From positions 46,348 to 110,347 of the forward strand of contig CAZROC010000001.1 in NCBI GenBank assembly GCA_964601625.1: a DNA stretch of 64,000 bases. Direction: 5' to 3'. Positions 5-30,845 of the stretch are shown piece after piece. The DNA is from an uncultured Thermoplasmata archaeon. Its GTDB lineage: Archaea; Thermoplasmatota; Thermoplasmata; JAGHBH01. The notes under the pieces were generated by a model. It saw only the letters and a list, made by a program, of their open reading frames with translations, was not told the origin of the DNA and did no database searches. The position numbers and the translations under genes are program-made. Position 1 is the first letter of the stretch, and each line of letters starts with the position of its first letter.

Positions 5-637
5 GTGATAATACCTCTGGGCGGAGGCGGCGGTATAACCCTCTCCCAGATAGTCCGCTATGGCATAACACCCGTGTATATCATGGTGGTGGCAAACCTG
101 GTCAACATGCACTCGGGATTCAACGGCCTCCAGAGCGGTGTTTCCCTCATAGTTCTCATTTCTCTCTTTTTAAAAGAGTGGCTTTATGGGGACATGGACG
201 ACATGCTCACAGCCGCCGCAATAACAGGCGGTCTGGCAGGATTCTGGTGGTACAACCGGTACCCGGCCAGGTTCTTTGAGGGAAACATAGGGAGCATGGC
301 CATAGGAGCCACTATAGGAGGGATCATAGTCACAAAACACCTCTATTTCACAGGGTTCGTCATGCTGATACCGCACACCATCAACTTTTTGATGTACGTT
401 TACTGGCGCTTTAAACGATGGACACTCGTCAGGCAGGGGCGAGAAGTGGGACCATACCACCACCAGATAAAGTTCGGAAAAATAAGAGACGACGGGACAC
501 TGGACGTCCCCAACCGGCTGACCCTCAAATGGTTCATACCCTTCCACAGGCCCACAACCGAGCCACAGGCGGTCAGGTATATGTACATTCTCAGCGCAAT
601 CTTCTGCTTTGCCGGAATAATAATGCCATATTATTGA
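5..637 (+). CDS. Polyprenyl-phosphate N-acetylhexosamine-1-phosphate transferase (GT4 MraY/WecA/Alg7-AglH family); 5' end cut by window edge
   Basis: Hydrophobic multi-TM ORF with a NLVNMHSGFNGLQSG-type motif typical of the MraY/WecA/GPT family; it lies next to the Alg13/Alg14 homologs. Confidence 0.65.
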   Translation: MIIPLGGGGGITLSQIVRYGITPVYIMVVANLVNMHSGFNGLQSGVSLIVLISLFLKEWLYGDMDDMLTAAAITGGLAGFWWYNRYPARFFEGNIGSMAIGATIGGIIVTKHLYFTGFVMLIPHTINFLMYVYWRFKRWTLVRQGREVGPYHHQIKFGKIRDDGTLDVPNRLTLKWFIPFHRPTTEPQAVRYMYILSAIFCFAGIIMPYY

Positions 638-1167
638 TCGATCTCTTCACGTAGTCGGACTCCCAGGCGCTTCTCTATCTCATCCCGGATAAAACACTCC
701 GGAGACACGTACTCTCTAAACTCTTTCTGTAGGGCCCGGTTTATGGCATCCTCAAGATCTTTAACGTCCGGACACCATACGAGATATCCCATCTCTTCCA
801 GTTTGAGCGGTAGCTCTTCCTGCCGGTTTTTTATTTCTACCAGGCCGCGGCTTTCTGTTACCACTTTTATTTTATCCCGCTTTAGCAGGACCTTCAGGCG
901 GGGGTTGGTGACGGCCACGATCTTTTTTTTCATGCTTAAAAGAGTGAAAAGTGTGCCGGCAGCGGCATGGGTCACCACCAGATCCGCCTCTCTGTAGTAT
1001 TCATCAAGGGATGGAGCATAACGAAAGTATTCCAGGTGGTGAGGGATATACCGCCCGCTGCCTATCTGCGCCACGACCACGTCTTTTATTTTCCCGGACC
1101 CCTTTAAAAGGTCCATGGCTTCTATGAGCTCATCAAAATATGTGGTACCCACGGTAACAAAGATCAT
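631..1167 (-). CDS. Alg13-like glycosyltransferase subunit (Glyco_tran_28_C; UDP-GlcNAc transferase catalytic half)
   Basis: VFVTVGTTYFDELI matches the Alg13/MurG-C N-terminus. The start was moved to the internal ATG at 1167, which overlaps the upstream Alg14 stop as ATGA; the ORF-track start at 1224 would overlap Alg14 by 58 nt. Confidence 0.7.
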   Translation of the reverse strand: MIFVTVGTTYFDELIEAMDLLKGSGKIKDVVVAQIGSGRYIPHHLEYFRYAPSLDEYYREADLVVTHAAAGTLFTLLSMKKKIVAVTNPRLKVLLKRDKIKVVTESRGLVEIKNRQEELPLKLEEMGYLVWCPDVKDLEDAINRALQKEFREYVSPECFIRDEIEKRLGVRLREEIDQ

Positions 1168-1718
1168 CACGCAAGCCTCCCCGCGTAGATGGCCCTTGGA
1201 AATCGTTTCTTCATCTCCGGCCACTGGACAAAAAAGAGATCCGCTATACGATAAACGATCCGTCCGGTCAGGCTCGGCAGATACACTCTCTGCATGCTCT
1301 CAACAAAAACCGTTTTTGAGCCAAAAATTTTTCCAGCTATAAAAATAGGGACCGTTATATCCTTTCCAACACTCACGATGATGTCCGGCTTTTCTGAGGC
1401 TACCGCCACCAGCGACGCAAAAAGAGAAAAAATAGACCTGAAAAGAAATGTGAACGGGTCGTCCCATGTACGCCCGGGCGGGGGAATATAGATTTCTCTC
1501 CCGGGAAAGGGCTCTTTATGGGGGGAAAGCGAATCCCCCTTTATCATAACATATACATAATCAGCATCATCTCCAAGGTGTCTGACCAGAAGAGATGTCT
1601 CCGTTGTGTGGCCTCCGCCAGCGAAGACCGCCATAATCTTCAATTTTCTCCCAGGACGTCCACTGATCCGGGTTTTTTTCCCTTTTCTTCCGCCAGTTTT
1701 CGTCTTCTCTACATACAT
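1167..1718 (-). CDS. Alg14-like protein (membrane-anchor/acceptor-binding subunit of the Alg13/14 UDP-GlcNAc transferase)
   Basis: IMAVFAGGGHTTE is the Alg14-family G-G-G-H-T signature. Start placed at the internal ATG 1718, which has an AAAGGTG Shine-Dalgarno about 5 nt upstream; the longer ORF (to 1808) would overlap the radical SAM gene. Confidence 0.7.
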   Translation of the reverse strand: MYVEKTKTGGRKGKKTRISGRPGRKLKIMAVFAGGGHTTETSLLVRHLGDDADYVYVMIKGDSLSPHKEPFPGREIYIPPPGRTWDDPFTFLFRSIFSLFASLVAVASEKPDIIVSVGKDITVPIFIAGKIFGSKTVFVESMQRVYLPSLTGRIVYRIADLFFVQWPEMKKRFPRAIYAGRLA

Positions 1719-1728
1719 CGGGACACCT

Positions 1729-3188
1729 TTACTGTTTTTCTTTTCCCGCTGTTCGTATAACGTTGACCAGAGAAACCATGAACTCAAATATGTTCGGGGC
1801 ATATCCAAGCATGAACTGTCTGGCCCGCACCAGGTACACCATGTGATGAAATATTATTTTCGGACGCAGATAAAATTCCAGCATGGCCCTTTTCTGCCAC
1901 CCTATCAACTCCTCCCGGGAGATGTCTCCAACCTCTACAACAGCGTTCCCCCACCGCATGTATTCTTTCCAGTTGTTGGTTACAGCACGTATGCCATCCC
2001 CTTTCATAGCCATATCGTACAGTACCGACCCAGGGTACGGTGTTGCGATATTAAAAAAAGCTGCATCAAGGTCAAGATTTTTTGCGAAATCTATAGTTTC
2101 ACGAATCGTCTTCCTGGTCTCATAAGGAAGGCCGATTATGAACGACCCCCTTGTCTCTATTCCGAACTCTTTTGCGAGCCTGAAAGCCCTCCGATAGGCG
2201 TCCAGCGTGGTTTTTTTGCCGATTCTCTCAAGCATCTCCCCATTGCCCGTTTCAACTCCCATACTAAGTTGAACCAGGCCCGCCCTTTTCATAGCAGCCA
2301 GCACCTCTCTGTCAATCGTGTCTGCCCTTGCCAGACAGTACCAGTCAGACAGTACCAGTGAATGTCCAGACCCCTTTCAACGATCATATTGCTTATCTGT
2401 ATGGTCCTCTTCTTGGAAAATGTGAAGGTGTCGTCGGCGAAGACCACGCCCCTGACACCATATCTCCTGACAGCCTCTTCCAGCTCGTTAACAACATATT
2501 CCGGAGAATGAGGACGGAGGGGGGCCGGGTCCTTTGAGCGATAGCAGAAGATACACCTGTACGGGCAGCCACGGCTCGTCTGGACCATCGTGCTCCTGAC
2601 CAGCCCTTCGCCGGGGACTGGCATCTTGTAATTTTCTGGGTCAACCAGATGGCGGGCGGGGAAAGGAATTTCGTCAACATTCATTATCGGTGGGCGTGGC
2701 CGGGTCAAAACGATTCTCCTATCTTTTCTGAAACCAATCCCATCTATCGTTTCGTATTCGCCCCCGGACTCCAGAACACGAACCAGCTCAGACAGTGTGA
2801 CCTCCCCCTCCCCCCTGACCACAAAGTCTATCCAGGGACTCTCTTTCAACGTCTCCGCGGGCAGAGCAGAAGGATGAAAACCGCCCGCAATGGTGACTGT
2901 CTCTCCAGAAGACTCCTTCACCCGTCTGAGAAACTCTGCCACCGTGGGCATCTCTGGGGTCGTCGCTCCCGCACCCACAATATCCGGCCTGAAAGACAGG
3001 GTTTTTTCAACAGCCCTTTCAAGTGTGAGACCCTCTGCTTCGGCGTCCACTATGTGGACGGTGTGACCTCCCCTTTCAAGCACCGAAGCGAGATAAAGGA
3101 GTCCCAGTGGAGGAAGAACGATTTTCCTGCGACCGAGTTTAAAACGGCGATAAACGCCAGCATCAGGTCTTACCAGCACAACATTCAT
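1729..3188 (-). pseudogene. B12-binding radical SAM protein; frame interrupted by a 14-bp tandem duplication (it appears as ORFs 2289..3188 and 1729..2304)
   Basis: The N-terminal ORF has a B12-binding-like region followed by SRGCPYRCIFC (CxxxCxxC). The C-terminal ORF continues the radical SAM fold (AAMKRAGLVQLSMGVETGN). Removing one copy of cagacagtaccagt (2332-2359) gives the continuous reading ...HWYCLARADTIDREVLAAMKRAGL.... Confidence 0.7.
2332..2359. repeat. Perfect 14-bp tandem duplication (cagacagtaccagt x2) inside the radical SAM gene
   Basis: Read directly: 2332-2345 is identical to 2346-2359. The unit length is not a multiple of 3, so it shifts the frame. Confidence 0.9.
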
Positions 3189-3304
3189 CTTTACTGTCCT
3201 CTCTTCTAGTGTACACTGTACATCATTTCCTCTCTTTTAAAGCCTTATTTTGTATAAAACCCTAACGTCAGGAAAAAACTTTAAAGGACTCAACATCTCC
3301 TCCT

Positions 3305-4111
3305 TTGATAAAAATGGACAGAGATTTCACATTCGCTGTATACCAGAAAATACTGGACACGCTTGTTGAAACAGGATACACCTTTGAAACGGTAGCAGAA
3401 GCGCTGGAAAACGAAAACAGGGGTACAGCCGATGGGGAAACAGGGAAAAAAATATGTATTATCAGACACGACGTGGACCACTCCCCAAAAAAAGCCCTGA
3501 AAATGGCCCTCTTAGAAAAACAAAAAAACATCCACGCCACCTACTATTTCAGGTTCTTAAAAAACATCTACCAGCCAGACACAATGAAAAAAATAGAAGA
3601 AATGGGACACGAGGTAGGGTACCACTATGAAACATTGTGCAAAAAGAAAGGCGACAAAGACCAGGCGTGGGCCCTTTTCCTTGAAGAACTCGCAGATATG
3701 AGAAAACACGTTGACATAAAAACCGCATGCATGCACGGGAGCCCCATGTGCAAATACAACAACCTTGACATCTGGCAGGAACACAAACCCGAAGAAGCAG
3801 GCCTCCTCGGCGAAGCATATCTATCTTTTGACTTCTCAAAGTGGTTTTATTTTTCAGACACCGGAAGGAGATGGGACTCAAAATATAGTGTTCGGGACGG
3901 TGTCACTAATGGAAAAAATACGGATGTAATTAGTAGTTTTCAACTGATTAGATTTATAAAGAGAGAGAAACCTGATAAGTTATATATAACTGCACATCCA
4001 TCCAAATGGGCACATAATATGAGTGAGTGGTTTATAATTCTAGCCAATCATATGGCTAAAAACCCCATAAAGTTGATTATAAAGAAGATGTGCTCAAAAA
4101 ACAAGTGCTAA
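3305..4111 (+). CDS. Polysaccharide deacetylase-like protein (divergent CE4-like); paralog of 17366..18232
   Basis: IIRHDVDHS...ATYYF... is shared with the ORF at 17366..18232 (LGIRHDVDHSL...TTYF). The 3' third of the gene is strongly AT-rich. Confidence 0.5.
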   Translation: MIKMDRDFTFAVYQKILDTLVETGYTFETVAEALENENRGTADGETGKKICIIRHDVDHSPKKALKMALLEKQKNIHATYYFRFLKNIYQPDTMKKIEEMGHEVGYHYETLCKKKGDKDQAWALFLEELADMRKHVDIKTACMHGSPMCKYNNLDIWQEHKPEEAGLLGEAYLSFDFSKWFYFSDTGRRWDSKYSVRDGVTNGKNTDVISSFQLIRFIKREKPDKLYITAHPSKWAHNMSEWFIILANHMAKNPIKLIIKKMCSKNKC

Positions 4112-4244
4112 AAATATTTTGCACTTCGGTATCCTTTGCTAAAAACAAGAGACCAAAAAGAGGAGGAAACAGAATGAACCTACCCGACGAAAAACAGGAG
4201 ATATATTACAAAATACAGAAGGGGATAACTATAGATGAAAAAAA

Positions 4245-4946
4245 ATGGAGCACTTTGCGTGGAGAGATGCAGAATATTATGATCTGTGCCATGGACCTTA
4301 CGCACTGAATAGAAGAAGAAGACAAATATTTCACAAGAGACTTAATGCTCTTGAAAAAGCTCTACTATTTGTATTGAACGGTGATTTATACAATCTCAAA
4401 AGAAAAAAGGTGCTGGACGTGGGTGCCGGCACGGCCAATTTTTCGCTTGCCTTATCTATCTGGGGTGCAGATGTCACTGCTCTTGACCTTAACCCAGAGT
4501 TCGCCAAAATAGCCGATGAAAAACTGCGAAGGTTCGGGGGCAGAGGTATAGAAGGTGACGCAGCGGACATGCCTTTTGATGATAATGAATTTGACTTAAT
4601 AGTAACCGTGAATTTCATTGACGGCGGAGATTTTCCGGAAGAAAAGATGGTGAAGGCAATAAAAGAGATGATGCGCGTTTCCAAACCTGGGTCTTATTTT
4701 ATTAACTTGATAAGAAATGGCGATCATTTTTATATGCGTTCAAAGAGGGGTATTTATGCGGTTGGAAAAGAAAAAGTGTTGCAATTACATAATTTAACAG
4801 GTCTATCTCTTATCAAGATGGGGACCTTTGTTATACCTCCACCTTGGGCAGGATTAAAAGGTTTTCTTGGATCTGTTGTGCAGTATACCCCACTAAGCAT
4901 TTTCCGAGGAGGAATATACTTCATATCCAAAAATGACAAAGTTTGA
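4245..4946 (+). CDS. Class I SAM-dependent methyltransferase
   Basis: VLDVGAGTANFSLAL is motif I (a glycine-rich SAM-binding loop), followed by an acidic residue after beta-2. An upstream 44-codon ORF with a strong RBS (ATG 4174) would fuse in frame if the A8 run at 4238-4245 were A9. Confidence 0.8.
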   Translation: MEHFAWRDAEYYDLCHGPYALNRRRRQIFHKRLNALEKALLFVLNGDLYNLKRKKVLDVGAGTANFSLALSIWGADVTALDLNPEFAKIADEKLRRFGGRGIEGDAADMPFDDNEFDLIVTVNFIDGGDFPEEKMVKAIKEMMRVSKPGSYFINLIRNGDHFYMRSKRGIYAVGKEKVLQLHNLTGLSLIKMGTFVIPPPWAGLKGFLGSVVQYTPLSIFRGGIYFISKNDKV

Positions 4947-5013: not shown

Positions 5014-6882
5014 GTGAGCATGAAAACAGTTCATCTGAGCAAGCGAGTTAATATTTTTATATTCCTGTCCCTCCTCTTTCTCTCTATCGCTAGCCGGTAT
5101 CCCGTTACACCACATGAGATAGGGGCTGACTCTTTTTATATACACGAGCTAGGGGAAAGCATAACTAAAAGGGGATACGCGATGTGGATTCTCCATCCAC
5201 TCGCCTATTTCGGTTTATATCCCCAGTCGTACCCAGCGGCTGTACCTTTTTTGATATCCGCCGCCCAGCAGTTAACGGGTCTTCCTATGGAGTATGTTAT
5301 ATATTTAGCAGGCCAGATATTCGGAATAATCGCCCTTATGGGGGCATACTTACTCGCTGGTGAGTTTTGGAATGATGATCGTTTCAAATTTTTATCCGCT
5401 GCCGCTTTTTCTCTTTCTCCCATAATCATCAAATTCACGTGCTGGACGATTTCCACAAGGGGCCTGTTTCTTACCTTGACACCTTTAATGCTCGGTTTGA
5501 TTCTTAAGACCAGAAATCTTGAAGGGAGCGAAAAAGTGGCATATCTCATAGTTGGTGTTTTTTTTCTCATCACCCTCGCATTGATTCACAGGATGTTTGG
5601 CCTGATAGTAATAACAATATTAATATTTTATATATTAATGTGGATTTTTAAATTAAGTATAAGGCGTTTTAACTATAATAGTATATATAGAACTACCGGA
5701 AAGATAGGCATAATCACAATGTCAACTATCATAATTATCTTTGCGTCAATTATATTATTTATTTCCATAGAAAATATATATAATGCGACAGATATACATA
5801 TATCCCTTGCTCCATCTTCTGTGCGAGCATCCGTATTTATAGGTCTGATAATATCCTTATTTCTCTCCGTGTATCTATGGTTTGTCAGCAGGGACAGACG
5901 GCCCCTAAAACAGGTAACTTCAACTGCCATAGTGTTCTTGGGCGCATCCCTATTTTTCGTTCAGTTCACCAAGTTCGCCCCCTGGCAGGACTTTTCCTGG
6001 CTGAGAACTATTCTGCCAGGGGAACTCCCCAAAGAAACTCTCCTAGATTTTATTGTGGGTCTCTGGATTGTTATGGGCGCCCGGATAGGCATATTTTTGA
6101 TCCCTGCTGTTGTTGGTATGCTGATTCTCCCCTTCACTTCAATAGCAGAGCCAAATAGAATCTTCCTAGTGGTCGCCCTATTCCTATTTTTCCCATTTTT
6201 CCACGTTGCCATGTATTTCTATCAGGTATTTTCGGTAGTATACTTCCTGCTGGGTGTTTATACCCTTTTGTTTGCTTATAGGCTATTAAGTGGGGAAAAA
6301 AGAACCCTGAGAAAAACCGGCAGAGAGCGCCAGATTGACACACACAGTAATCATAACCTTCATAAAGTGAAAAGAAAGTCACGCTTGGAACTCTCAGAAG
6401 AGAGGATAGATAAAATGAGAAAAAACGTCGCGATCGGGTTCGTAGTTGTTATCCTAATAGCATCCAGTGCTTTTACTATATATACAGTAGAATATCGTTT
6501 ACAGAATACTGGTAAATATGGTTTCAAAAACTATATGGAAGAACATGAATACACAGTTGGATTATATTTAAAAATATATAAAAACGATGCACCTATTTAT
6601 CCTGGGGCACGCATTGGTGCAATATGGGGGGAAGAGCCGCACAGAGCTCCTGAAGATGTTGAGGTGGTCCGAAAAGAGCCGCCTTCATTGTTTGATTTTT
6701 ATGGGTGGTTCGTATACTTTAAACAACCCGTTGAACAGGTTTATACATCAAAATATACTCCTTGCCCAGCGTATAAGTTCAGAACAGACCCCGAAGGAAA
6801 AATAGAAAACATGCTTGAAAACGGGCTCATTATCTACTATAATGGAAGAGACACAGTATGGTACACGTTTCCGAAAACATAA
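5014..6882 (+). CDS. Polytopic membrane protein with a C-terminal soluble domain; possible GT-C-fold glycosyltransferase or polymerase (ArnT/PMT-like). Not AglB
   Basis: More than 10 predicted TM helices over ~450 aa, then a ~170-aa hydrophilic C-terminal domain. No WWDYG motif, so not an oligosaccharyltransferase. Very low GC (~25-30%) through 5600-5900. Confidence 0.45.
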   Translation: MSMKTVHLSKRVNIFIFLSLLFLSIASRYPVTPHEIGADSFYIHELGESITKRGYAMWILHPLAYFGLYPQSYPAAVPFLISAAQQLTGLPMEYVIYLAGQIFGIIALMGAYLLAGEFWNDDRFKFLSAAAFSLSPIIIKFTCWTISTRGLFLTLTPLMLGLILKTRNLEGSEKVAYLIVGVFFLITLALIHRMFGLIVITILIFYILMWIFKLSIRRFNYNSIYRTTGKIGIITMSTIIIIFASIILFISIENIYNATDIHISLAPSSVRASVFIGLIISLFLSVYLWFVSRDRRPLKQVTSTAIVFLGASLFFVQFTKFAPWQDFSWLRTILPGELPKETLLDFIVGLWIVMGARIGIFLIPAVVGMLILPFTSIAEPNRIFLVVALFLFFPFFHVAMYFYQVFSVVYFLLGVYTLLFAYRLLSGEKRTLRKTGRERQIDTHSNHNLHKVKRKSRLELSEERIDKMRKNVAIGFVVVILIASSAFTIYTVEYRLQNTGKYGFKNYMEEHEYTVGLYLKIYKNDAPIYPGARIGAIWGEEPHRAPEDVEVVRKEPPSLFDFYGWFVYFKQPVEQVYTSKYTPCPAYKFRTDPEGKIENMLENGLIIYYNGRDTVWYTFPKT

Positions 6883-6891
6883 GGGGGTATA

Positions 6892-8148
6892 GTGATATCA
6901 ATGGAGTCAAAAAACCCACCTGACGAAGACAGAAAAAGAGATGGAAGGTTATCAATATGTTTCGTAGCGTACGCGCCCCCTTTTGCTTCCGGCGGTGCAA
7001 GCACACATTTCTGGGAACTGTTGAAACACCTCCCATCGTTCCTTTTTGCCGAGGGGAAAGAAGGTAGGATATGTGTGGTTATGGAAGATATACCACACCC
7101 GGAGATAAAAGGGGTTGAGTTTCACGTCGTCAAAGGAAATTACCTGCCCTCTTACAGAAAGAGAACCTCCGCCAGGATCCATCGCTTTCTGCTTTCCCTC
7201 CGACTGGTCTTTCTGGCCAAAAAAGATTGTAAAAACGCAGATATAATATATTCAAGGAGTCTCATAAACGCTTTTTTCCTGCTCTTTTTGTGGCCGGATA
7301 AAAGGAAAAATCTTGTCCTGGAGGCGAACGGGATATGGTCTGAGGAGCACCTGTCCAGAAAAGGTGGCAAAAAAGACCTGACCTATATCCTGTTGCGGTG
7401 GATGGAGAAAAAGGTTGCTGGTTCTTCCGCCGGGATTATATGTGTGACGCCGCAAATAGCCGAGTTTTATGGGAGATACAACAGCAATGTTTTCGTAGTA
7501 CATAATGGCGTTGACACCACTCTTTTCCGTCCATTGTCTATGGAAGATCGGCTTTATATGAAAAAAAGTTTTGGCCTCAACGGTTTCCCTGTTGTGGGCT
7601 TTGTGGGCAATTTTGCACCGTGGCAGGGGCTGGAACTGATTGTTCCCATGGCCAGAATAGTGGTTGAGCATTACCCAGATGTCAGGTTTTTACTCGTGGG
7701 AGATGGCGAAGTCAAAGAGAATCTTGAGCGAGAGGTGGCAGAGGCGGGTCTTGAAAAACATTTCATCTTTGCAGGACACGTCGACTACGAGAAGGTGCCT
7801 ATGTACATAAACGCCATGGACGTGTGCGTTGCCCCGTTCTGGAAGGGAAAAATGGTTGGGGGGGTCTCCGCATTGAAATTATATGAATATATGGCATGTG
7901 GGCGGCCAATAGTGGTGTCCGCTGTTCCAAATACGGAGTTTATAAACAAAGTGAGATGTGGATTGAGGTTTAGTCCGGGAAATCCTGATGATTTCGCGCG
8001 CAAAGTTTTACATCTGCTGGAGCACAAAAAAGAGGCAGAGGAGATGGGGCAGGCTGGTAGAAAATTTGTGGAAATTGAAGGGAGCTGGAAAAAAGTCGCA
8101 GAGAAAACATCAGAAATTTTTTATAAAATAAACGCTAAAGAAACATAA
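6892..8148 (+). CDS. Glycosyltransferase family 4 (GT-B, Glycos_transf_1)
   Basis: The C-terminal domain carries the GT4 E-x7-E region (LYEYMACGRPIVVS) and VGFVGNFAPWQGLELIV. The likely true start is the ATG at 6901 after an AAGGGGG Shine-Dalgarno. Confidence 0.8.
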   Translation: MISMESKNPPDEDRKRDGRLSICFVAYAPPFASGGASTHFWELLKHLPSFLFAEGKEGRICVVMEDIPHPEIKGVEFHVVKGNYLPSYRKRTSARIHRFLLSLRLVFLAKKDCKNADIIYSRSLINAFFLLFLWPDKRKNLVLEANGIWSEEHLSRKGGKKDLTYILLRWMEKKVAGSSAGIICVTPQIAEFYGRYNSNVFVVHNGVDTTLFRPLSMEDRLYMKKSFGLNGFPVVGFVGNFAPWQGLELIVPMARIVVEHYPDVRFLLVGDGEVKENLEREVAEAGLEKHFIFAGHVDYEKVPMYINAMDVCVAPFWKGKMVGGVSALKLYEYMACGRPIVVSAVPNTEFINKVRCGLRFSPGNPDDFARKVLHLLEHKKEAEEMGQAGRKFVEIEGSWKKVAEKTSEIFYKINAKET

Positions 8149-8163
8149 CAGTAACACGAAATC

Positions 8164-17194: not shown

Positions 17195-17365
17195 ATTAAA
17201 ACAAAGAGGGTATTAGGCGTATATATAAATTACTCGGGGGGGTTTCATTTATCTGCACAGTATGAGCCATACAGGCTCTCCAAAAAAATACTTATATGCT
17301 CGGCCGATGAAGGAATACAGGAAAAAATCCTGCGAACTGATAAAATACCTATAAAAGGTGAGACT

Positions 17366-23634: not shown

Positions 23635-24789
23635 ATGGGTGAAAATATTACTCTCGCATTGATAGGTAATCCTTTAAGCCCCCATCTCCAGAGGTGGATC
23701 AGATTTTATTCTGAAAAAGGCGTTCACGTTGTTCTCTTTACACGATATGACCCCACGTATCTGTATGAACAATCAGACCGCATTTTTAAAGGCGTTGAAA
23801 TTGCGCAGGTGAAATTTCACGGTAATAAATTCACTAGGTCTATGAATTTGAAAAAAGACCTAAGAAAAAAGATGGGAGAATACAAACCGGACATTTTGCA
23901 TGCCCATTACGTGGCTCTTTATGGGTGGTGGGGATATTTAACAGGATTTCATCCTTTTGTTATGCAGGTGTGGGGTACTGATGTATTTAAATTTCCTACT
24001 ACGTCTATGAAAAATTACTTTACAGTTAAAAAGATTCTAAAATCTGCTGATACTATTATAGTAACTAATGAATACACTAAAAAATATGTATATAAAAAGT
24101 TCAATTTAAAAAATAGAAATATTGTTATAAACAGGTGGGGTGTTGACCTGACCATTTTCGATTTGCCTTCTCCGGAAAAAAAACGACAGCTTAGAAATAA
24201 ATGGGGCATACCTTCAGATAACATTGTGTTCTGTAGCCCAAGGCATTTAACTAAGTTATATCAAGTAGACCTGTTGACAGAGGGGTTTCACCAGTTCACT
24301 AAAGAAAATCCGGACTTAAAAGTATACTTCTTGATATTAACCGGTCTTTCCAGAGACAATGAGATATACAACAAAGTCGTTGAAAAAATCAAAATAAGTA
24401 AAAACATCTCTTTAATAGAAAAAGAGCTAAACGCATATGAAATGGCAGAGATTTTCCAGATCTCAGATGCTGTTTTTTCTATACCAATCCATGACCAGTT
24501 CTCTTCTTCAATCCAGGAAGCCATGGCCTGTGGAAGCATCCCTATTGTCTCAAAACTCCCAGTATACGGAGAGTTTCTTGAAGACGAAAAGAACGCTCTA
24601 TTTTTAAAAGAAGTTAATGCTCAAGAAATCAAAAAAAGTATAAAACGCTTCCTTAATATTGATGAAAACAAGAAAGCAGAAATGATCAAATACAATCGTA
24701 ATATAATAGAAAAATATTTTAATTGGGAAAAAGAAAGTGAAAAAATGCTGGACCTGTACAAAAAGTGCTTGGAAAATACCCTCTATTGA
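23635..24789 (+). CDS. Glycosyltransferase family 4; a low-GC (~33%) gene
   Basis: QEAMACGSIPIVSKLPVYGEFLEDEKNALFLK is the GT4 C-terminal motif; composition differs sharply from the neighbours. Confidence 0.8.
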   Translation: MGENITLALIGNPLSPHLQRWIRFYSEKGVHVVLFTRYDPTYLYEQSDRIFKGVEIAQVKFHGNKFTRSMNLKKDLRKKMGEYKPDILHAHYVALYGWWGYLTGFHPFVMQVWGTDVFKFPTTSMKNYFTVKKILKSADTIIVTNEYTKKYVYKKFNLKNRNIVINRWGVDLTIFDLPSPEKKRQLRNKWGIPSDNIVFCSPRHLTKLYQVDLLTEGFHQFTKENPDLKVYFLILTGLSRDNEIYNKVVEKIKISKNISLIEKELNAYEMAEIFQISDAVFSIPIHDQFSSSIQEAMACGSIPIVSKLPVYGEFLEDEKNALFLKEVNAQEIKKSIKRFLNIDENKKAEMIKYNRNIIEKYFNWEKESEKMLDLYKKCLENTLY

Positions 24790-24792
24790 TAA

Positions 24793-25260
24793 GTGGATAC
24801 AATTAAATACACTCAAAAATATGAGGAGATGATGACAGCCCGTTTCAAAACGTGGAAAAAACCTGAGTTTGACGAGAGGAGTCTCACCAAGTGGAACTGG
24901 ATGTGCCAGCACCCGGAGAATCTCGTTCTCGGTTATGGGTGCGATATCGGCGCCTTCACATACATAAATGCCGCTTTCGGAGTTGAAATAGGGGAGAACG
25001 CACAAATAGGATCCCATTGTTCAATTTATTCAATTTCAACAATAGACGGAAAAAAGGGCAAAGTCGTTATAGAAAAAAATGCGCGAATCGGGAGTCACAG
25101 TGTAGTCATGCCCGGCGTTCGTGTAGGTGAAAATTCAGTCGTGGGAGCGTTCAGCTTCGTTAACAGAGACATACCTCCAAACGTTCTGGCGTTCGGTGTC
25201 CCCGCGCGAGTTATACGCCCTCTCACGGAGGAAGAAATGAGAGGTGCAGAGGATGAGTGA
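24793..25260 (+). CDS. Hexapeptide-repeat N-acetyltransferase (PglD/WbpD-like amino-sugar acetyltransferase candidate)
   Basis: LbH repeats (IGENAQIGSHCSI, IGSHSVVMPGVRVGENSVVGAFSFV); sits directly upstream of the DegT aminotransferase and 4,6-dehydratase. Confidence 0.75.
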   Translation: MDTIKYTQKYEEMMTARFKTWKKPEFDERSLTKWNWMCQHPENLVLGYGCDIGAFTYINAAFGVEIGENAQIGSHCSIYSISTIDGKKGKVVIEKNARIGSHSVVMPGVRVGENSVVGAFSFVNRDIPPNVLAFGVPARVIRPLTEEEMRGAEDE

Positions 25261-26428
25261 ATGGAAAATACCTCTCTTTCGCATATACTGGGATGAAGAA
25301 GATGTCAACGCTGTCAAAGAAGCTATTGAGCGTGGCATGTTCTGGGCCGTCGGTCCAGAAGTGAAAAAATTTGAAGAGAAAATCGCGGAGTTTCTTGGAA
25401 GGCGATATGCTCTTGTTTTTAATTCGGGCACTTCTGCCCTGCATGCACTGCTGTTAGCTCACGGGGTGGGACAGGGGGATGAAGTCGTTGTACCTTCTTT
25501 CTCGTTTATATCTACTGCCAACTCTGTTCTTTTTGTAGGAGCAAAGCCGGTCTTCGCCGATATAGAAGAAGAAACCTTTGGTCTGGATGTTGAAAATGTG
25601 CAGGAAAAGATAACGTCGCACACAAAAGTCATAATGCCCATGCACTATGGTGGAGGGGTGGCCAGAGATATAACTGCTCTGCGTGAGATAGCGGAAGACC
25701 ACAACATCATTTTGATAGAAGATACCGCGGAGTCCTTTGGGGCAAAAAAAGATGATGTTTTTGCGGGGTGTTTCGGTCAATCCGCCGCTCTTAGCTTCTG
25801 CCAAACAAAAATTTTCACCACAGGAGAAGGCGGCGCAATAGTAACAGACAACCGCGATATATATGAACGAGCAAAGCTCGTTAGATCACACGGAAGAGCC
25901 GAAACGGCGGATTATTTTAATTCTACAGAATACATGGATTATGTATCTCTTGGGTATAACTTCCGCATGGCTAACATTCTGGCAGCACTGGGTATATCCC
26001 AGCTCAAGAAGGTTGAAAAGCTCATTTCAATGAGAAGGTCCGTGGCTTCTCAAATAACAGAGTCTCTGTCGGATGTTGAAGGAATAAGAACACCCGTGGA
26101 ACCTGCTGGACATTTTCATGTATATCAGATGTACACAGTACGTGTTTCAGGAGGAAAAAAAACTAGAGATGCTTTAAAGAAACATCTTGAAAAGCGTGGA
26201 ATAATGAGCAGGGTTTATTTTAACCCGATCCACAGAACATCTTTTTACGTCGGTATGGGATACGGGGGTATCTCCTTGCCTGTTACAGAAAAGATTTCTA
26301 AAGAGGTTCTGACACTTCCCATATTTCCTGATATGACATCTGAAGAGATAGAATATATAACCGGTTCAATAAAAACGTTCTTTGAAAAAGAGGAAAAGGA
26401 GCGGAGGGCTAATGAGAGCCAATGCTGA
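25244..26428 (+). CDS. DegT/DnrJ/EryC1/StrS-family PLP-dependent sugar aminotransferase
   Basis: Typical family layout (...NSGTSALHALL...EVVVPSFSFISTANSV...) with the conserved Lys region (...SFCQTKIFTTGEGGAIV). Confidence 0.85.
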   Translation: MQRMSEWKIPLFRIYWDEEDVNAVKEAIERGMFWAVGPEVKKFEEKIAEFLGRRYALVFNSGTSALHALLLAHGVGQGDEVVVPSFSFISTANSVLFVGAKPVFADIEEETFGLDVENVQEKITSHTKVIMPMHYGGGVARDITALREIAEDHNIILIEDTAESFGAKKDDVFAGCFGQSAALSFCQTKIFTTGEGGAIVTDNRDIYERAKLVRSHGRAETADYFNSTEYMDYVSLGYNFRMANILAALGISQLKKVEKLISMRRSVASQITESLSDVEGIRTPVEPAGHFHVYQMYTVRVSGGKKTRDALKKHLEKRGIMSRVYFNPIHRTSFYVGMGYGGISLPVTEKISKEVLTLPIFPDMTSEEIEYITGSIKTFFEKEEKERRANESQC

Positions 26429-27488
26429 AAGACCTTTAGGACTTACTGAGGAAGAGCAGATAAAAAACGCTCTGGAAGATAAAACTGTTCTTGTAACCGG
26501 TGGACTTGGTAGTATAGGAGGAGAAATCGTTCGCCGGTTGGTCGACGAATACTCTACAAAAAAGATCATCATTTTTGATAACAGAGAAACCGAACTTTTT
26601 TATGCTAAACAGGCCTTTTCAGATAAAGTTCATGTCATATATGGGGATGTGAGAGATGCCCGCGCTGTGGAAAGGGCATTTAAAGGAGTGAACATAGTTT
26701 TCCACGCCGCCGCCATGAAACATGTGATAATGTGTGAGATGAACCCTTTTGAGGCTGTAAAAACCAACGTGATAGGCACAGAGAACGTGATCAACGCGGC
26801 GGTTAACAACCGGGTTGAGAAGGTCGTCGTTATATCCACCGATAAAGCGGTGAATCCTACAAATGTTATGGGGGCGACAAAACTTCTGGCAGAGAGGCTG
26901 GTATCTGCGTTTTGTTCGTCGTATAACAAAGACAACGCCCCACGTTTTTCCGTAGTTCGTTTCGGCAACGTCCTGGCATCAAGAGGGTCTGTGCTTGAGA
27001 TCTGGGACAAGCAGTTGAGGGCGGGAGAAAAGATAACAGTAACAGACCCAGACATGACACGGTTTTTTATGGACGTGTCTCAGAGCGTATATCTTATCTT
27101 TTCCGCCATGGTTATGGGAAAACGCGGAGAAACGTTTATTTTCAAGATGCCCTCTATAAAAATAGGGGACCTGGCAAGGGCGTTTTTGGAAGTGCGCGGT
27201 TACCCAGCAGACCATGTTAAAATAACCGGCAAGCGTCCGGGAGAGAAAACCCACGAGGAACTGTTGAACAACGACGAGAAAGAGTTTCTTCTTGAAAACG
27301 AGAAGATGTTCGTTCGGTTGCCTCTTTTTTACGACCAAACGGTTATTGAAAATCTCAAAAGGTATGATTTTAGAGAGGCAACGAACTATTCGTTTTCATC
27401 CGCGGACGAGAATAACCTGTTGGATTTCAAGGATATAATCGCTATACTGGAAAAAAACCTAAAAAATGAGTTAACGATGAATAAATAA
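26412..27488 (+). CDS. UDP-sugar 4,6-dehydratase (short CapD/PglF/PseB-FlaA1 type, SDR family)
   Basis: KTVLVTGGLGSIGGEIVRRL is the Rossmann motif; ...FHAAAMKHVIMCEMNPFEAVKTNVIGTENV...VVVISTDKAVNPTNVMGATK. Start at ATG 26412 after a GGAGGG Shine-Dalgarno; the ORF-track start is a TTG. Confidence 0.8.
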   Translation: MRANAERPLGLTEEEQIKNALEDKTVLVTGGLGSIGGEIVRRLVDEYSTKKIIIFDNRETELFYAKQAFSDKVHVIYGDVRDARAVERAFKGVNIVFHAAAMKHVIMCEMNPFEAVKTNVIGTENVINAAVNNRVEKVVVISTDKAVNPTNVMGATKLLAERLVSAFCSSYNKDNAPRFSVVRFGNVLASRGSVLEIWDKQLRAGEKITVTDPDMTRFFMDVSQSVYLIFSAMVMGKRGETFIFKMPSIKIGDLARAFLEVRGYPADHVKITGKRPGEKTHEELLNNDEKEFLLENEKMFVRLPLFYDQTVIENLKRYDFREATNYSFSSADENNLLDFKDIIAILEKNLKNELTMNK

Positions 27489-27490
27489 TA

Positions 27491-28312
27491 TTATCTCAGA
27501 AAGCTGTTCGCCTCCCGCCATCCCTCCGGAGTGCCTATGTCATATCTTTTGCCTTCTATTTCCACGGCGACGGCGCCTTCTTCTTTTATGAGCATGTCTA
27601 TGGCGTGGGTTAGCTGTATTTCTCCTCGCTGGTCGGGGGGTGTTTTTGAGATGTGGGTGTATATGGCGGGGGTGAGGATGTATCTTCCCAGGACTGCGAG
27701 GTCGCCTGGTTCTTCGCCCGGCTCCGGTTTTTCCACTATTCCACACAGTTCGTATGTTGGCGGGCTGTCGCTGAGCCTTTTTTTTATCTCCACCACGCCG
27801 TAGTTGTGGAGTTTTTCCCGTGGGAGGCGTTCCACCGCCACCACCGTTTTTTTGTGTCGGGCGTAGATTTCCATGAGCTGTTTTATGGCGGGTGTTTTTG
27901 AGAAGACCACGTCGTCGCCCAGGAGGAGGGCGAAGGTTTTGTCTCCCGTGTGGTGTCTGGCAGCGTATACCGCGTGTCCGAGGCCGAGGGGTTCTCTCTG
28001 GCGTATGTAGTGTATGGATGCCATTTCCGCTATGTTCTTTATCTCTGCCAGTTTTTCTTTTTCTCCTCTGGCAGCGAGGATCTGCTCCAGTTCCACTGAG
28101 TGGTCAAAGTGGTCTTCTATCGCCCTCTTTCCCCTTCCTGTTATTATGAGGATGTCGTCTATTCCGCTGGCAACGACCTCTTCCACGACATACTGGATGG
28201 CCGGTTTTGTTCCTATGGGGAGCATCTCTTTGGGCATGGCTTTTGTTGCTGGCAGAAAACGGGTTCCCAGCCCGGCTGCGGGGATGACGGCTTTTGTGAC
28301 TGGTGCTGGCAT
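27491..28312 (-). CDS. Sugar-1-phosphate nucleotidyltransferase, UTP-glucose-1-phosphate uridylyltransferase (GalU)-like
   Basis: KAVIPAAGLGTRFLPATKAMPKEMLPI is the GalU-type signature. Start placed at the internal ATG (28312); the longer ORF would overlap the divergent dehydrogenase gene. Confidence 0.75.
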   Translation of the reverse strand: MPAPVTKAVIPAAGLGTRFLPATKAMPKEMLPIGTKPAIQYVVEEVVASGIDDILIITGRGKRAIEDHFDHSVELEQILAARGEKEKLAEIKNIAEMASIHYIRQREPLGLGHAVYAARHHTGDKTFALLLGDDVVFSKTPAIKQLMEIYARHKKTVVAVERLPREKLHNYGVVEIKKRLSDSPPTYELCGIVEKPEPGEEPGDLAVLGRYILTPAIYTHISKTPPDQRGEIQLTHAIDMLIKEEGAVAVEIEGKRYDIGTPEGWREANSFLR

Positions 28313-28393
28313 GTGGTATAGAAAGGCGGGGTTGTTCTTAACCCTTTCTTTGGTTCGGAGATGTTTATATATCGGGGGTTGTTTTTCTCCACC

Positions 28394-29737
28394 ATGAAGG
28401 TTGGCATCGTTGGCACAGGATATGTGGGGCTTGTCACCGGGGTCTCCCTGGCGGAAAAGGGACACGAGGTGCTCTGTCTGGACGTGGACAGGGCTCGTGT
28501 TGACATGGTGAACAGGGGCGTGCCCCCTTTTTTTGAGCCGGGGCTGGAAGAAGCCCTGGGACGTGTGGTTTCTTCGGGAAATCTCCGTGCGTCAGATTCT
28601 TATGGCGATCTCGCTGGCTTTGAGGTGGTTCTCATATGTGTCAACACCCCATCTGCCGCTGATGGGAGCATGGACTCGTCTCAGCTCGTCTCTGCCGCCG
28701 CTTCCGTTGGGGACGTCCTGGGGGATATGAAAAAGAGTGTGGGGTTTCCAGTTGTGGCCGTGAAGAGCACCGTTTTGCCCGGCACCACGCTTGGGGTTGT
28801 CAGGAACACTTTGGAAAGCGTTTCGGGGATGGTTGCGGGTGTGGACTTTGGCCTGGCCATGGTGCCCGAGTTTTTGCGGGAGGGCAGTGCCCTGGAAGAT
28901 GCGAGGCGCCCGGACCGTGTGGTGGTCGGTGCTTTTGACAGGAGATCGGGGGACGTGCTTTCGTCTCTGTACGGTGATTTCGGCTCTCCTGTTGTGGTCA
29001 CGGATGCTGTGACCGCGGAGATGGTGAAATATGTTGCCAACTCTTTTCTGGCCACGAAGATATCTTTTGCAAACGAGATGGCGAGGATATGCGACAGGGT
29101 TGGGGCGGACGTGTACCGTGTCATGGACATCGTGGCCATGGACAGGCGGATTGAGCGGTCTTTTCTGAACGCCGGGCCGGGCTTCGGGGGCAGCTGTTTT
29201 CCCAAGGACGTGAGGGCTCTGGCACGTTTCGCTGAAGAAAACAATGTCAGGCCGCTCATTCTGAGGAGCGTGCTGGAGATAAACGAGTCACAGCCAGTCT
29301 ATGTGGTGGACGTGCTGGAAAAAGTGCTCGGAGGCCTCCGGAACAGGAGGGTGGCTGTGCTGGGCCTCTCCTTCAAGGGCGGGACGGATGATGTGCGTGA
29401 GAGCAGGGCTTTTCCCATCGTGAGGGAGCTCAAAAAGAGGGGAGCAAATGTTGTCTGTTATGACCCCGCTGCTGGAAAAAACTTTGCCGAAAAAGAGCCC
29501 GTTGATCTCGCAGAGGACATAAAGAGCGCTCTGGAAGGTGCCGACGCCTGTGTGATACAGAGCGACTGGGACGAGTTCCGCTCTCTCCAGCCCGGTGATT
29601 TCCGTGTTATGAAGACACCTGTTGTTTATGACACAAGGCGTGTCCTGGGGTTTGAAAGCGGGGAGGTGACTGTGCTGAGGGTCGGCGGCGGCATACCGGG
29701 AATTAAAAGAGATACGCATGATGGAGGTGCGTTGTGA
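28394..29737 (+). CDS. UDP-sugar 6-dehydrogenase (UDP-glucose / UDP-N-acetyl-D-mannosamine dehydrogenase family)
   Basis: MKVGIVGTGYVGLVTGVSLAEKGHEV is the N-terminal NAD-binding motif; catalytic Cys region ...GPGFGGSCFPKDV. The adjacent WecB homolog suggests a WecC-like role, but a Ugd role is not excluded. Confidence 0.85.
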   Translation: MKVGIVGTGYVGLVTGVSLAEKGHEVLCLDVDRARVDMVNRGVPPFFEPGLEEALGRVVSSGNLRASDSYGDLAGFEVVLICVNTPSAADGSMDSSQLVSAAASVGDVLGDMKKSVGFPVVAVKSTVLPGTTLGVVRNTLESVSGMVAGVDFGLAMVPEFLREGSALEDARRPDRVVVGAFDRRSGDVLSSLYGDFGSPVVVTDAVTAEMVKYVANSFLATKISFANEMARICDRVGADVYRVMDIVAMDRRIERSFLNAGPGFGGSCFPKDVRALARFAEENNVRPLILRSVLEINESQPVYVVDVLEKVLGGLRNRRVAVLGLSFKGGTDDVRESRAFPIVRELKKRGANVVCYDPAAGKNFAEKEPVDLAEDIKSALEGADACVIQSDWDEFRSLQPGDFRVMKTPVVYDTRRVLGFESGEVTVLRVGGGIPGIKRDTHDGGAL

Positions 29738-29744
29738 TATGCCC

Positions 29745-30845
29745 ATGAGGGTTGTGTCTGTTGTCGGTGCCCGCCCGCAGTTTGTGAAGGCGGCGCCCGT
29801 TTCAAGGGCTCTGCGCTCCAGGGGGCACGAGGAGACGCTGGTTCACACCGGCCAGCACTACGATTATGAGATGTCCGCCTCTTTTTTTGAGGAACTGAGC
29901 ATCCCCCCGCCCGACGTCTATCTGGGTGTCGGGTCCGGGAGCCATGGATACCAGACCGGTGAGATGCTGAAAAAGATTGAAAAAGTGCTCTTTGAAAAAC
30001 TTGGCGGAGGGGGTGTGGACTGTGTCATCGTCTATGGCGATACCAACTCCACCCTGGCCGGTGCTCTGGCCGCTGCAAAACTGCACATACCCGTGGCACA
30101 TGTGGAGGCGGGGCTCAGGAGTTTCAACAGGAGGATGCCGGAGGAGATAAACCGTGTGGTGGCTGACCATGTCTCGTCAATACTCTTCTGCCCGACCGAG
30201 AAGGCCGTGGAAAACCTGCGCCATGAGGGAATAACAGAGGGCGTTTTCCTGGTGGGAGATCCCATGGTTGACGTCCTCCTGTCCTTTGCCGGAAAACTGG
30301 ACGTTGAAAGCGTTCTCAAAAAATACGGCCTCCGCAGCGGAGATTTTTTTCTGGCCACGGTGCACAGAGCAGAGAACTCGGACGATCCCGGACGGCTGAG
30401 GAATATAATCAACGCTTTTTCCAGCGCCCCCCTGCCCGTGGTCTTCCCCGTCCACCCCCGGACAAAGAAGAACATGGAAAATACGGAGATGTCCCCGGGG
30501 GACAACGTCCTACTTCTGCCGCCGCTGTCCTACACCGAATTCATATCCCTATTAAAAGCCGCCAGAGCCGTTCTCACCGATTCCGGTGGGGTCCAGAAAG
30601 AAGCATATGTGGTCGGCACGCCGTGTATAACACTCCGGGATGAGACGGAGTGGGTTGAGACCGTGGACGCGGGGTGGAACGTTCTCGCGGGAGCGGACAC
30701 AGAGCGCATAATCCGGTTGATGGACACCTTTTCTCCACCAGAAGAGCATCCCCCGCTCTATGGAGATGGAAATGGAGCCAAGACCATCGTGGACATACTT
30801 GAGAAAGAACTGGGCGGAAAACGGAATAGAGATGGATTGAAATAG
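29745..30845 (+). CDS. wecB: UDP-N-acetylglucosamine 2-epimerase (non-hydrolysing)
   Basis: VVSVVGARPQFVKAAPV...HTGQHYDYEMS...HVEAGLRS...DSGGVQKEA are hallmark WecB/MnaA motifs. Confidence 0.85.
   Translation: MRVVSVVGARPQFVKAAPVSRALRSRGHEETLVHTGQHYDYEMSASFFEELSIPPPDVYLGVGSGSHGYQTGEMLKKIEKVLFEKLGGGGVDCVIVYGDTNSTLAGALAAAKLHIPVAHVEAGLRSFNRRMPEEINRVVADHVSSILFCPTEKAVENLRHEGITEGVFLVGDPMVDVLLSFAGKLDVESVLKKYGLRSGDFFLATVHRAENSDDPGRLRNIINAFSSAPLPVVFPVHPRTKKNMENTEMSPGDNVLLLPPLSYTEFISLLKAARAVLTDSGGVQKEAYVVGTPCITLRDETEWVETVDAGWNVLAGADTERIIRLMDTFSPPEEHPPLYGDGNGAKTIVDILEKELGGKRNRDGLK

Follow-up and report, generated by a model that had tools for sequence, protein, structure and literature searches.

A probable cell-surface glycan assembly locus of mosaic base composition in an uncultured Thermoplasmata archaeon

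What would an archaeon make with a long run of genes in which glycosyltransferases and a flippase lie beside a uronyl C5-epimerase homolog, deacetylase-like proteins and two CapK-family ligases, and how did such genes come together? These questions are raised by the left half of a 64,000-nucleotide stretch of contig CAZROC010000001.1 (assembly GCA_964601625.1, positions 46,348 to 110,347; hereafter the window), which comes from an uncultured Thermoplasmata archaeon. An earlier reading of the letters of this DNA (the sequence-only reading) had described a glycan island that was assembled piecemeal by horizontal transfer and whose combination of enzymes was without archaeal counterpart. Our analysis indicates that the cluster is likely to be a cell-surface glycan assembly locus, with the pathway proposed below and an origin in the exchange of cassettes, and that its combination of enzymes is not unprecedented in Archaea.

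Gene assignments were obtained from a listing of open reading frames (ORFs) and from Pfam and NCBIfam profile searches. The run of glycan genes that had been described from the window start to 30.8 kb proved to be unbroken as far as position 30845, and it also extends approximately 440 bp to the left of the window, a region reached by ENA and JGI contigs. It comprises 27 intact genes, one split gene and one remnant, all in glycan-biosynthesis families. The left flank, beyond the first cluster gene, contains genes for 2-oxoacid:ferredoxin oxidoreductase (POR), PCNA, TFS and the proteasome-activating ATPase PAN, and the right flank, past 30845, contains non-glycan genes for PAC2, FtsJ, XPD helicase, DnaG, eRF1, ArgRS, peptidases and a transporter. 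Given that housekeeping genes lie beyond both ends, the size of the cluster is about 31.3 kb. The profiles confirmed most of the families named in the sequence-only reading: a GlcNAc-1-phosphate transferase-type enzyme, an Alg14/Alg13 pair, Wzx, three left-handed-beta-helix (LbH) acyltransferases, DegT, a 4,6-dehydratase, GalU, Ugd and WecB, as well as two F390-synthetase-like ligases, a B12-binding radical S-adenosylmethionine (SAM) enzyme, a SAM-dependent methyltransferase and a C5-epimerase homolog. The count of nine GT4 glycosyltransferases was too high, with seven Glycos_transf_1 (GT4-type) genes being found.

A gene set for the assembly of a lipid-linked glycan is present, consisting of an initiating transferase, a bipartite transferase, the seven GT4 genes and a flippase. 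The first cluster gene (1-637, + strand) is cut by the window start, so that the window holds the COOH-terminal 210 of its 359 amino acids; it encodes a polyprenyl-phosphate sugar-1-phosphate transferase of the AglH/WecA/MraY superfamily (PF00953, Pfam E value of 8e-22). The bipartite GT-B glycosyltransferase is encoded by a gene for an Alg13-like, PssE-Cps14G-type catalytic half (631-1167, − strand; PF04101; NCBIfam PssE, 131 bits against a cut-off of 120) and a gene for an Alg14-like, PssD-Cps14F-type membrane-anchoring half (1167-1718, − strand; PF08660, E value of 1e-21; NCBIfam PssD, 124 bits against a cut-off of 110). Euryarchaeal enzymes of the EpsE/F type are related to those of exopolysaccharide (EPS) synthesis, and the bipartite transferase in related systems adds Glc or Gal rather than GlcNAc (PMC8993221), so a chitobiose core is not assured. 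The GT4 genes are GT4a, of the GT-B retaining type (6901-8148, + strand; Glycos_transf_1 and Glyco_transf_4), GT4b (8810-10054, + strand; Pfam), GT4c (10093-11283, − strand), GT4d (13525-14748, + strand; Pfam), GT4e (14745-15956, + strand; Pfam), GT4f (18573-19760, − strand; a weak GT4 signal in Pfam) and GT4g (23635-24789, + strand). GT4d and GT4e are tandem paralogs with 35% identity, and GT4c and GT4g, both with a Glyco_trans_4_2 NH2-terminal domain, are paralogs with 29% identity. The flippase for lipid-linked oligosaccharides is of the Wzx type (21446-22993, − strand; Polysacc_synt, MatE and WZX_like).

Genes for the supply of nucleotide sugars occupy the right end of the cluster. GalU, a UTP-glucose-1-phosphate uridylyltransferase (27491-28300, − strand), scored 338 bits against a cut-off of 327 with TIGR01099, and WecB, a nonhydrolyzing UDP-GlcNAc 2-epimerase and the last gene of the cluster (29745-30845, + strand), scored 313 bits against a cut-off of 210 with TIGR00236. 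The nucleotide-sugar 6-dehydrogenase between them (Ugd; 28394-29737, + strand) is closest to AglM-type UDP-glucose dehydrogenase (426 bits); the possibility that it partners WecB as a WecC-type UDP-ManNAc dehydrogenase was disfavored, given that the archaeal UDP-ManNAc dehydrogenase model scored 220 bits. An intergenic region of approximately 90 bp (28301-28393) separates the divergent GalU and Ugd genes at this native-GC end of the cluster and is likely a shared bidirectional promoter. To the left of GalU, three genes side by side (24793-27488) encode LbH3, an NeuD/PglD-like N-acetyltransferase of an amino-sugar module (24793-25260, + strand; Pfam and NCBIfam), a DegT/PseC/PglE-type sugar 4-aminotransferase (25244-26428, + strand; PF01041, E value of 9e-110; PseC, 305 bits with a cut-off of 424) and a PseB/PglF/CapD-type UDP-GlcNAc 4,6-dehydratase (26382-27488, + strand; PF02719, Polysacc_synt_2, E value of 5e-97; PseB, 273 bits with a cut-off of 408). 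This arrangement is shared with PglF/PglE/PglD of Campylobacter jejuni and with the early steps of Pse/Leg synthesis, whereas the enzymes in the window fall below the PseB and PseC equivalog cut-offs and genes for PseG/H/I or NeuB are missing from the cluster. The pathway therefore probably ends at a diamino-trideoxyhexose.

The C5-epimerase homolog (19816-20751, + strand) matched the C5-epim_C domain PF06662 with an E value of 3e-46 (157.8 bits against a cut-off of 23.3) and human GLCE (6hzz) with an E value of 1e-21. In an alignment of 27 sequences (the window protein, 25 homologs and a human GLCE fragment), its residues E172, Y173, Y234 and Y246 aligned with the catalytic set of the human enzyme, which we take to be E499, Y500, Y560 and Y578, and Y234 and Y246 were invariant. 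With this domain and conserved Glu/Tyr set in common with the heparan-sulfate D-glucuronyl C5-epimerase of animals, the homolog is probably active. At 311 amino acids, it lacks the large NH2-terminal domains of GLCE. Archaeal C5-epimerase homologs were cataloged in 2011 by Raedts et al., and prokaryotic ones lie beside other sugar-modifying enzymes (PMC3068255), a location among glycan genes that the window protein shares. The O-antigen of Pseudoalteromonas haloplanktis KMM 223 contains GlcA, L-IdoA and QuiNHb4NHb, that is, di-N-(3-hydroxybutyryl)-2,4-diamino-2,4,6-trideoxyglucose (PMC3068255). The cluster in the window could in principle encode the same chemistry, a likeness that is chemical and inferential only; the product of the bacterium is a lipopolysaccharide. 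In Archaea, iduronic acid is documented for the N-glycan of Halobacterium salinarum only (PMC11407970).

The sequence-only reading counted three deacetylase-like genes. Two of these, PDA1 (3314-4111, + strand) and PDA2 (17300-18232, + strand, start codon uncertain), are intact and gained support at the level of predicted fold; the third is a decayed remnant, described below. PDA1, a paralog of PDA2 with 27% identity, contains an RHDVD motif and matched PdaB weakly (E value of 5e-5), with no Pfam match. PDA2 returned 1771 cluster representatives at an E value of ≤1e-3 from a library of 1.84 billion proteins; none of 41 family members scanned had a Pfam match, and PDA2 had no match in PDB by sequence or profile. 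An AlphaFold (AF2) model of PDA2 based on the family alignment had a pLDDT of 89.7, and its best Foldseek matches were CE4 deacetylases, namely an Encephalitozoon chitin deacetylase-like protein (2vyo, E value of 9e-6), a Bacillus anthracis CE4 enzyme (2j13), PdaC and a Colletotrichum chitin deacetylase (ClCDA). These matches had E values of 9e-6 to 1e-3 and target-normalized TM scores of 0.45 to 0.56, with TIM barrels of KDO8P synthase following at lower TM scores. The assignment of PDA2 to a CE4-like (NodB) fold thus derives from structure prediction, given that sequence and profile searches gave none. Residues D84, D86, H149, H187 and H284 are invariant in the PDA2 family, a set of Asp and His residues compatible with the site of a metal-dependent CE4-like deacetylase. 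Many proteins with several domains, up to 1300 amino acids long, also belong to the family.

The two ligases, Lig1 (11280-12653, − strand) and Lig2 (15953-17194, − strand), are 36% identical to each other and belong to the PaaK clade of adenylate-forming (ANL) enzymes. Lig1 matched the PaaK structure 4r1l with an E value of 2e-20, and the NCBIfam PaaK and F390 models matched the ligases with E values of 1e-15 to 1e-45, all below the equivalog cut-offs. For the identical protein P0121, precomputed annotation lists the CapK_C domain (PF27533), and the translations contain a GGTTG or GGSTG P-loop as well as COOH-terminal SGK or TGK motifs. The CapK family is large, with more than 2200 homologs at an E value of ≤1e-20 in one search, and literature searches on CapK- or F390-like ligases in glycan loci yielded no characterized member. 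The nearest relatives with solved structures are CoA ligases for small acids, including phenylacetate-CoA ligase and 2-hydroxyisobutyryl-CoA synthetase. Lig1 lies between LbH1, a long LbH acyltransferase with Hexapep, WcaF, WbbJ and NeuD-like matches (12669-13442, − strand), which is 16 nt upstream on the same strand, and GT4c, the first 4 nt of which are shared with the end of Lig1. Among five other genomic contexts compared, CapK was found beside a Glyco_trans_4_2 GT4 gene and a DegT/dehydratase/LbH module in two (L107 and L108), beside a PIG-L de-N-acetylase in one, and beside a PDA1 homolog (38% identical), Ugd and ATP-grasp enzymes in Methanolobus chelungpuianus (L024). Close archaeal CapK homologs were also repeatedly accompanied by DUF1616 membrane proteins (L107, 5093-7302; L108, 5052-7311; L023, 6692-6991; L024, 17299-20028), with an ABC-transporter ATPase immediately upstream in two cases; the window has neither.

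Because of the solved relatives, the junctions of Lig1 with LbH1 and GT4c, and the contexts of CapK elsewhere, we favor a role for the ligases in activating a carboxylic acid for the acylation of amino sugars, possibly after de-N-acetylation, and rate it modestly above a role in amidation. According to this alternative, which we regard as possible but somewhat doubtful, the CapK ligases join an amine or amino acid to the C6 carboxylate of a uronic acid, in analogy to the threonine-amidated mannuronic acids of Methanococcus. CapK is named after the cap locus of Staphylococcus aureus, and the type 1 polymer of this species carries taurine-amidated GalNAcA. Amidation would also suit the presence of Ugd both in the cluster and in the CapK context of Methanolobus, and uronate amides do exist in archaeal N-glycans (PMC11407970). 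However, the closest solved relatives convert small free acids to CoA thioesters, CapK in other contexts adjoins amino-sugar modules more often than Ugd, the related cassette of Theionarchaea described below has an Asn-synthase-type amidotransferase in place of a CapK ligase, and the literature searches offered no CapK activity in support; those on the threonine-attaching enzyme of Methanococcus found nothing usable. Two further genes may act in the modification of the glycan: LbH2, which is similar to O-acetyltransferases of the WbbJ/WcaF/LacA type (20744-21241, + strand; Pfam and NCBIfam), and a class I SAM-dependent methyltransferase (4245-4946, + strand; Methyltransf_11/25), which probably carries out O-methylation.

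The orphan multipass membrane protein TM622 (5020-6882, + strand; 620 amino acids), which did not appear in the gene list of the sequence-only reading, matched nothing in Pfam or PDB at the level of sequence. It is predicted to adopt the GT-C transmembrane fold, with oligosaccharyltransferases and PMT enzymes as the nearest structures, and 16 relatives of it could be detected, including one from Methanosarcina sp. WWM596. Its first external loop contains a conserved PHEIGxDSFxIH motif with the acidic residues E33 and D37; conserved acidic residues in this loop are shared with GT-C enzymes of both the AglB/STT3/PglB and the PMT/ArnT types. Unlike the oligosaccharyltransferases AglB, STT3 and PglB, TM622 has no WWDYG motif in its COOH-terminal domain, which is soluble, small and poorly predicted, and no DxD motif in external loop 1, and a conserved TIXE motif was also not found. 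The possibility that TM622 is a cryptic AglB was rejected, given the lack of WWDYG and DxD and the equally strong matches to PMT. A probable role for TM622 is that of a glycosyltransferase which depends on polyprenyl-phosphate sugars and works on the external side of the membrane. Uncharacterized PMT/STT3-like arCOGs in archaeal glycosylation neighborhoods have been noted before (PMC5898192).

Taken in the order of a lipid-linked pathway, these genes suggest the following scheme. GalU and the AglM-like dehydrogenase would supply UDP-GlcA, WecB would supply UDP-ManNAc, and the 4,6-dehydratase, DegT and LbH3 would supply a UDP-2,4-diacetamido-2,4,6-trideoxyhexose of the bacillosamine type. Assembly would take place on dolichyl phosphate at the cytoplasmic face, with initiation by the PF00953 transferase followed by the action of the Alg14/13-like (PssD/E) transferase and then of the seven GT4 enzymes. 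The glycan may be tailored by the CE4-like enzymes, which would strip N-acetyl (or O-acetyl) groups, by the CapK ligases, which would make acyl-adenylates or acyl-CoA (or, alternatively, amidate uronates), and by LbH1 and LbH2, which would attach acyl groups other than acetyl. The methyltransferase would O-methylate, the radical-SAM step would currently be off, and the GLCE-like enzyme would turn GlcA into IdoA within the assembled chain. After Wzx has flipped the lipid-linked glycan, TM622 might add a sugar from a dolichyl-phosphate sugar at the outer face or transfer the glycan to an acceptor. The former role would resemble that of AglS of Haloferax volcanii, which is a membrane transferase for dolichyl-phosphate sugars.

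A locus of this kind might instead make a secreted or capsule-like acidic polysaccharide, an EPS resembling glycosaminoglycans, with a Wzx-dependent repeat unit polymerized outside the cell and a C5-epimerase acting on the polymer. The Alg14/13-like pair scored as the EPS type (PssD/PssE-Cps14F/G), the relation of euryarchaeal EpsE/F-type enzymes to those of EPS synthesis (PMC8993221) points the same way, the only solved member of the C5-epimerase family, human GLCE, acts on a polymer, supply genes for uronic acids and amino sugars are present, and no ORF of the 64-kb window or of the 10 kb to its left matched AglB or STT3. On the other hand, neither a Wzy-type polymerase nor a regulator of chain length nor a component for export came up in profile searches of the cluster ORFs, TM622, the one membrane protein left unassigned, is predicted to have a GT-C fold nearest to that of oligosaccharyltransferases and PMT enzymes, and the presence of nine or more distinct transferases suits a long, heterogeneous oligosaccharide. 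Both the number of distinct transferases and the lack of genes for Wzy, Wzz and export therefore favor an oligosaccharide, and we regard a polysaccharide product as possible but on balance unlikely.

The agl clusters of H. volcanii, the main AglB-linked cluster and the alternative one for low salt, provide the natural comparison for an oligosaccharide locus. They have in common with the cluster in the window the clustering of genes for dolichol-linked glycans, supply enzymes of the AglF/GalU and AglM/Ugd types, soluble glycosyltransferases, a methyltransferase, a flippase-like protein and, if TM622 acts as AglS does, a membrane transferase for dolichyl-phosphate sugars. The two differ in that AglB is not adjacent in the window and in that its transferases belong to GT4, whereas those of H. 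volcanii are mostly GT2; the C5-epimerase, the CapK ligases, the CE4-like enzymes and the bacillosamine-type module go beyond the agl clusters. Within Haloferax, the agl clusters differ from strain to strain and undergo lateral gene exchange (PMC5867893).

A further counterpart was found in a metagenome-assembled genome (MAG) of Theionarchaea (GCA_019008885.1, JACVGR010000120.1; L106), which carries a partly syntenic cassette within 20 kb. The shared proteins, with 30 to 54% identity overall, include WecB (54%), DegT (53%), the 4,6-dehydratase (42%), a GT4f homolog (40%), the C5-epimerase (40%) and a homolog of GT4g/c (about 35%), as well as LbH, Wzx and Ugd. The trio of dehydratase, DegT and LbH beside a Glyco_trans_4_2 GT4 gene recurs in this cassette and in both of the CapK contexts described above (L107 and L108). 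What sets the Theionarchaea cassette apart is the Asn-synthase-type amidotransferase, along with an additional DegT, several methyltransferases and an oxidoreductase of the GFO/IDH type; CapK ligases and CE4-like, GT-C and radical-SAM genes are absent from the stretch examined. Its partial synteny indicates that a core set of genes travels together. Archaeal N-glycans with iduronic acid, threonine-amidated uronic acids and glyceroyl-acylated diaminouronic acids have been described (PMC11407970). With this chemistry and with the loci of Theionarchaea and Methanolobus, the claim of an enzyme combination without archaeal counterpart is not supported, although no homologous cluster with a known product, and thus no characterized cluster of identical synteny, was found.

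The base composition of the cluster bears on its origin. The sequence-only reading had reported swings in GC content from 25 to 30% to 58 to 60%; the mosaic is real but these figures were overstated. The interval 5600-5900, at 29.9%, fell within the lower range, whereas 23500-24400 and 3880-4400 (each 34.0%) and 21446-22993 (40.8%) did not, and 27500-30800, at 56.0%, is not an upward swing but of native composition, given that the backbone (30846-64000) has a GC content of 53.4%. Compared with 24 flanking housekeeping genes, the cluster genes deviated in GC (p = 1e-6), in GC at third codon positions (GC3; p = 7e-6) and in codon adaptation index (CAI) with the backbone as reference (p = 5e-5; Mann-Whitney tests), so that neither GC nor codon usage is uniform. 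One of the 24 reference genes (M14) was out of frame in the codon analysis, with the result being unchanged. The PF00953 gene (GC3 of 0.64), GalU, Ugd and WecB are native-like, with GC3 values of 0.60 to 0.65, and the Alg13/14 pair, the radical-SAM gene and the block at 8.8-17.2 kb are intermediate (0.50 to 0.65). In the low-GC blocks at 3.3-8.6 and 17.3-27.5 kb, GC3 is 0.36 to 0.49 and the values for the first and second codon positions (GC1 and GC2) are depressed as well, as in GT4g, the gene with the lowest GC content (34.5%; GC1 of 0.40, GC2 of 0.28, GC3 of 0.36). Four sharp transitions, at about 3.2, 8.7, 17.25 and 27.49 kb, coincide with gene boundaries. Of these four transitions, three have a PDA-family gene or the remnant beside them (at 3.3, 8.2-8.6 and 17.3 kb).

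This composition is explained most economically by a mosaic origin, and we infer that it reflects the exchange of cassettes, as is typical of surface-glycan loci; the counterpart of the second low-GC block in Theionarchaea fits such mobility. Of the claim of piecemeal horizontal assembly, a compositional mosaic beyond chance was upheld, whereas neither a donor nor a mobility gene was found. Low GC might also arise from a bias specific to the locus, through relaxed codon selection or AT-biased mutation in vertically inherited surface genes that evolve fast and are weakly expressed. Such an origin would agree with the lack of mobility genes, flanking direct repeats or a supported tRNA target, with the 40 to 54% identity of the best nonself homologs of the cluster proteins, which leaves no recent donor visible, and with the fact that two better-named homologs of low-GC genes are from Thermoplasmata archaea. 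It accounts poorly for the decrease in GC at all three codon positions, for abrupt transitions at gene boundaries that define blocks rather than a gradient, for the recurrence of the cassette gene set in another archaeal lineage and for a truncated paralog at a block junction, and we consider it unlikely. A tRNA-Pro(TGG) predicted by ARAGORN at 32489-32582 (94 nt) was rejected as an integration site, with Rfam being silent at the gathering threshold and at an E value of ≤0.1; the prediction is probably spurious, or else it marks a gene with an intron that the tRNA model fails to align.

The cluster also shows signs of REARRANGEMENT and decay, in the form of the split radical-SAM gene and the remnant of a PDA2 paralog. 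The gene for the B12-binding radical-SAM enzyme (1729-3188, − strand; Pfam and NCBIfam) was read as two ORFs of 299 and 187 amino acids. The cause of the frameshift is a perfect-register tandem duplication of 14 nt at about 2331-2358, CTGGTACTGTCTGA followed by CTGGTACTGTCTGG; removal of one copy in silico yielded a single ORF of 481 amino acids with the expected HWYCLARADTIDREVLAAMKRAG. The duplication is present in all four assemblies (NCBI, ENA, JGI and Logan) and could mean either that the gene was inactivated recently or that a modification of the glycan is switched on and off reversibly. Because the gene is disrupted, the C-methylation of a sugar by this enzyme, which the sequence-only reading had put forward, is doubtful. 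The remnant of the PDA2 paralog (8155-8618, + strand), identified by tblastn and as a DNA repeat (D2), includes an ORF of 115 amino acids, is truncated at its 5′ end and frameshifted, and lacks the NH2-terminal third and the RHDVD region. Positions 8155-8250 matched amino acids 144-175 of PDA2 with 66% identity, and positions 8253-8606 matched amino acids 178-306 with 36% identity in another frame. The remnant sits exactly at the junction of the first low-GC block and the intermediate block. That the whole cluster is decaying and partly nonfunctional, its combination of genes matching no glycan currently made, is very improbable, for beyond the frameshifted radical-SAM gene in every assembly and the fragmentary PDA paralog, the 27 other genes are intact, with catalytic motifs conserved where checked and with a tight coding arrangement of overlapping starts and stops.

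Several observations weigh against a functional surface-glycan locus built from exchanged cassettes. Two of its genes are broken. The dehydratase, the aminotransferase, Ugd and the ligases all score below the curated NCBIfam equivalog cut-offs. The LbH neighbor of CapK is not kept in the other contexts examined, and a conserved pairing of PDA2 with CapK was rejected, since in a scan of metagenomes with a narrow family alignment PDA2-family genes co-occurred with CapK in one of 44 loci of at least 6 kb. No aglB, with whose location the sequence-only reading had proposed that the cluster be compared, was found in the window or in the 10 kb to its left, whereas a location in or beside the agl cluster is usual in Euryarchaeota. 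With regard to origin, horizontal transfer is deduced from composition, with no visible donor; the scanned ORFs include no integrase or transposase, no long repeat flanks the cluster, and only short repeats were found besides the PDA remnant. The closest genomes are too distant for a comparison of the presence or absence of the cluster.

This distance reflects the host, which is an uncultured and rather isolated Thermoplasmata-type archaeon. Exact-protein look-ups recovered the DNA of the window in a 291-kb contig of NCBI, in ENA ERZ27248007, in JGI 3300022188 and in Logan runs; all of these copies are 100% identical, so strain variation is not visible from them. When GTDB representative genomes were scanned with the flanking PAC2 protein, the best matches were MAGs of Thermoplasmata/Thermoplasmatota with 50 to 54% identity, and no conserved neighbors were found around PAC2 in these MAGs. 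Elsewhere in the window, a Kelch-repeat protein of 1403 amino acids (54009-58220) contains 31 N-X-S/T sequons (2.2 per 100 amino acids) and may be a surface protein with heavy glycosylation and a potential acceptor of the glycan. A protein of 983 amino acids (36223-39174, − strand) has a Peptidase_C25 (gingipain-type) domain at its COOH-terminus, a domain that is probably uncommon in Archaea.

Surface-glycan loci that vary and have a foreign base composition occur widely in both Archaea and Bacteria, and the locus as a whole is thus unsurprising. Its value is that it places three enzyme families without assigned function, the CapK ligases, the CE4-like PDA family and the GT-C family of TM622, in one interpretable context. 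The boldest picture of the product, a glycan that joins iduronic acid and a diamino-trideoxyhexose, has its N-acetyl groups exchanged by a system of CE4-like enzymes, CapK and LbH, and is handled outside the cell by a new family of GT-C enzymes lacking WWDYG, is a long shot as a whole. Should it prove correct, a function could be assigned for the first time to CapK, an orphan family of very large size whose members lie in glycan loci of Bacteria and Archaea. Homologs of two of the orphan families are present in named genomes of Methanolobus and Methanosarcina, and their function may be approachable there.

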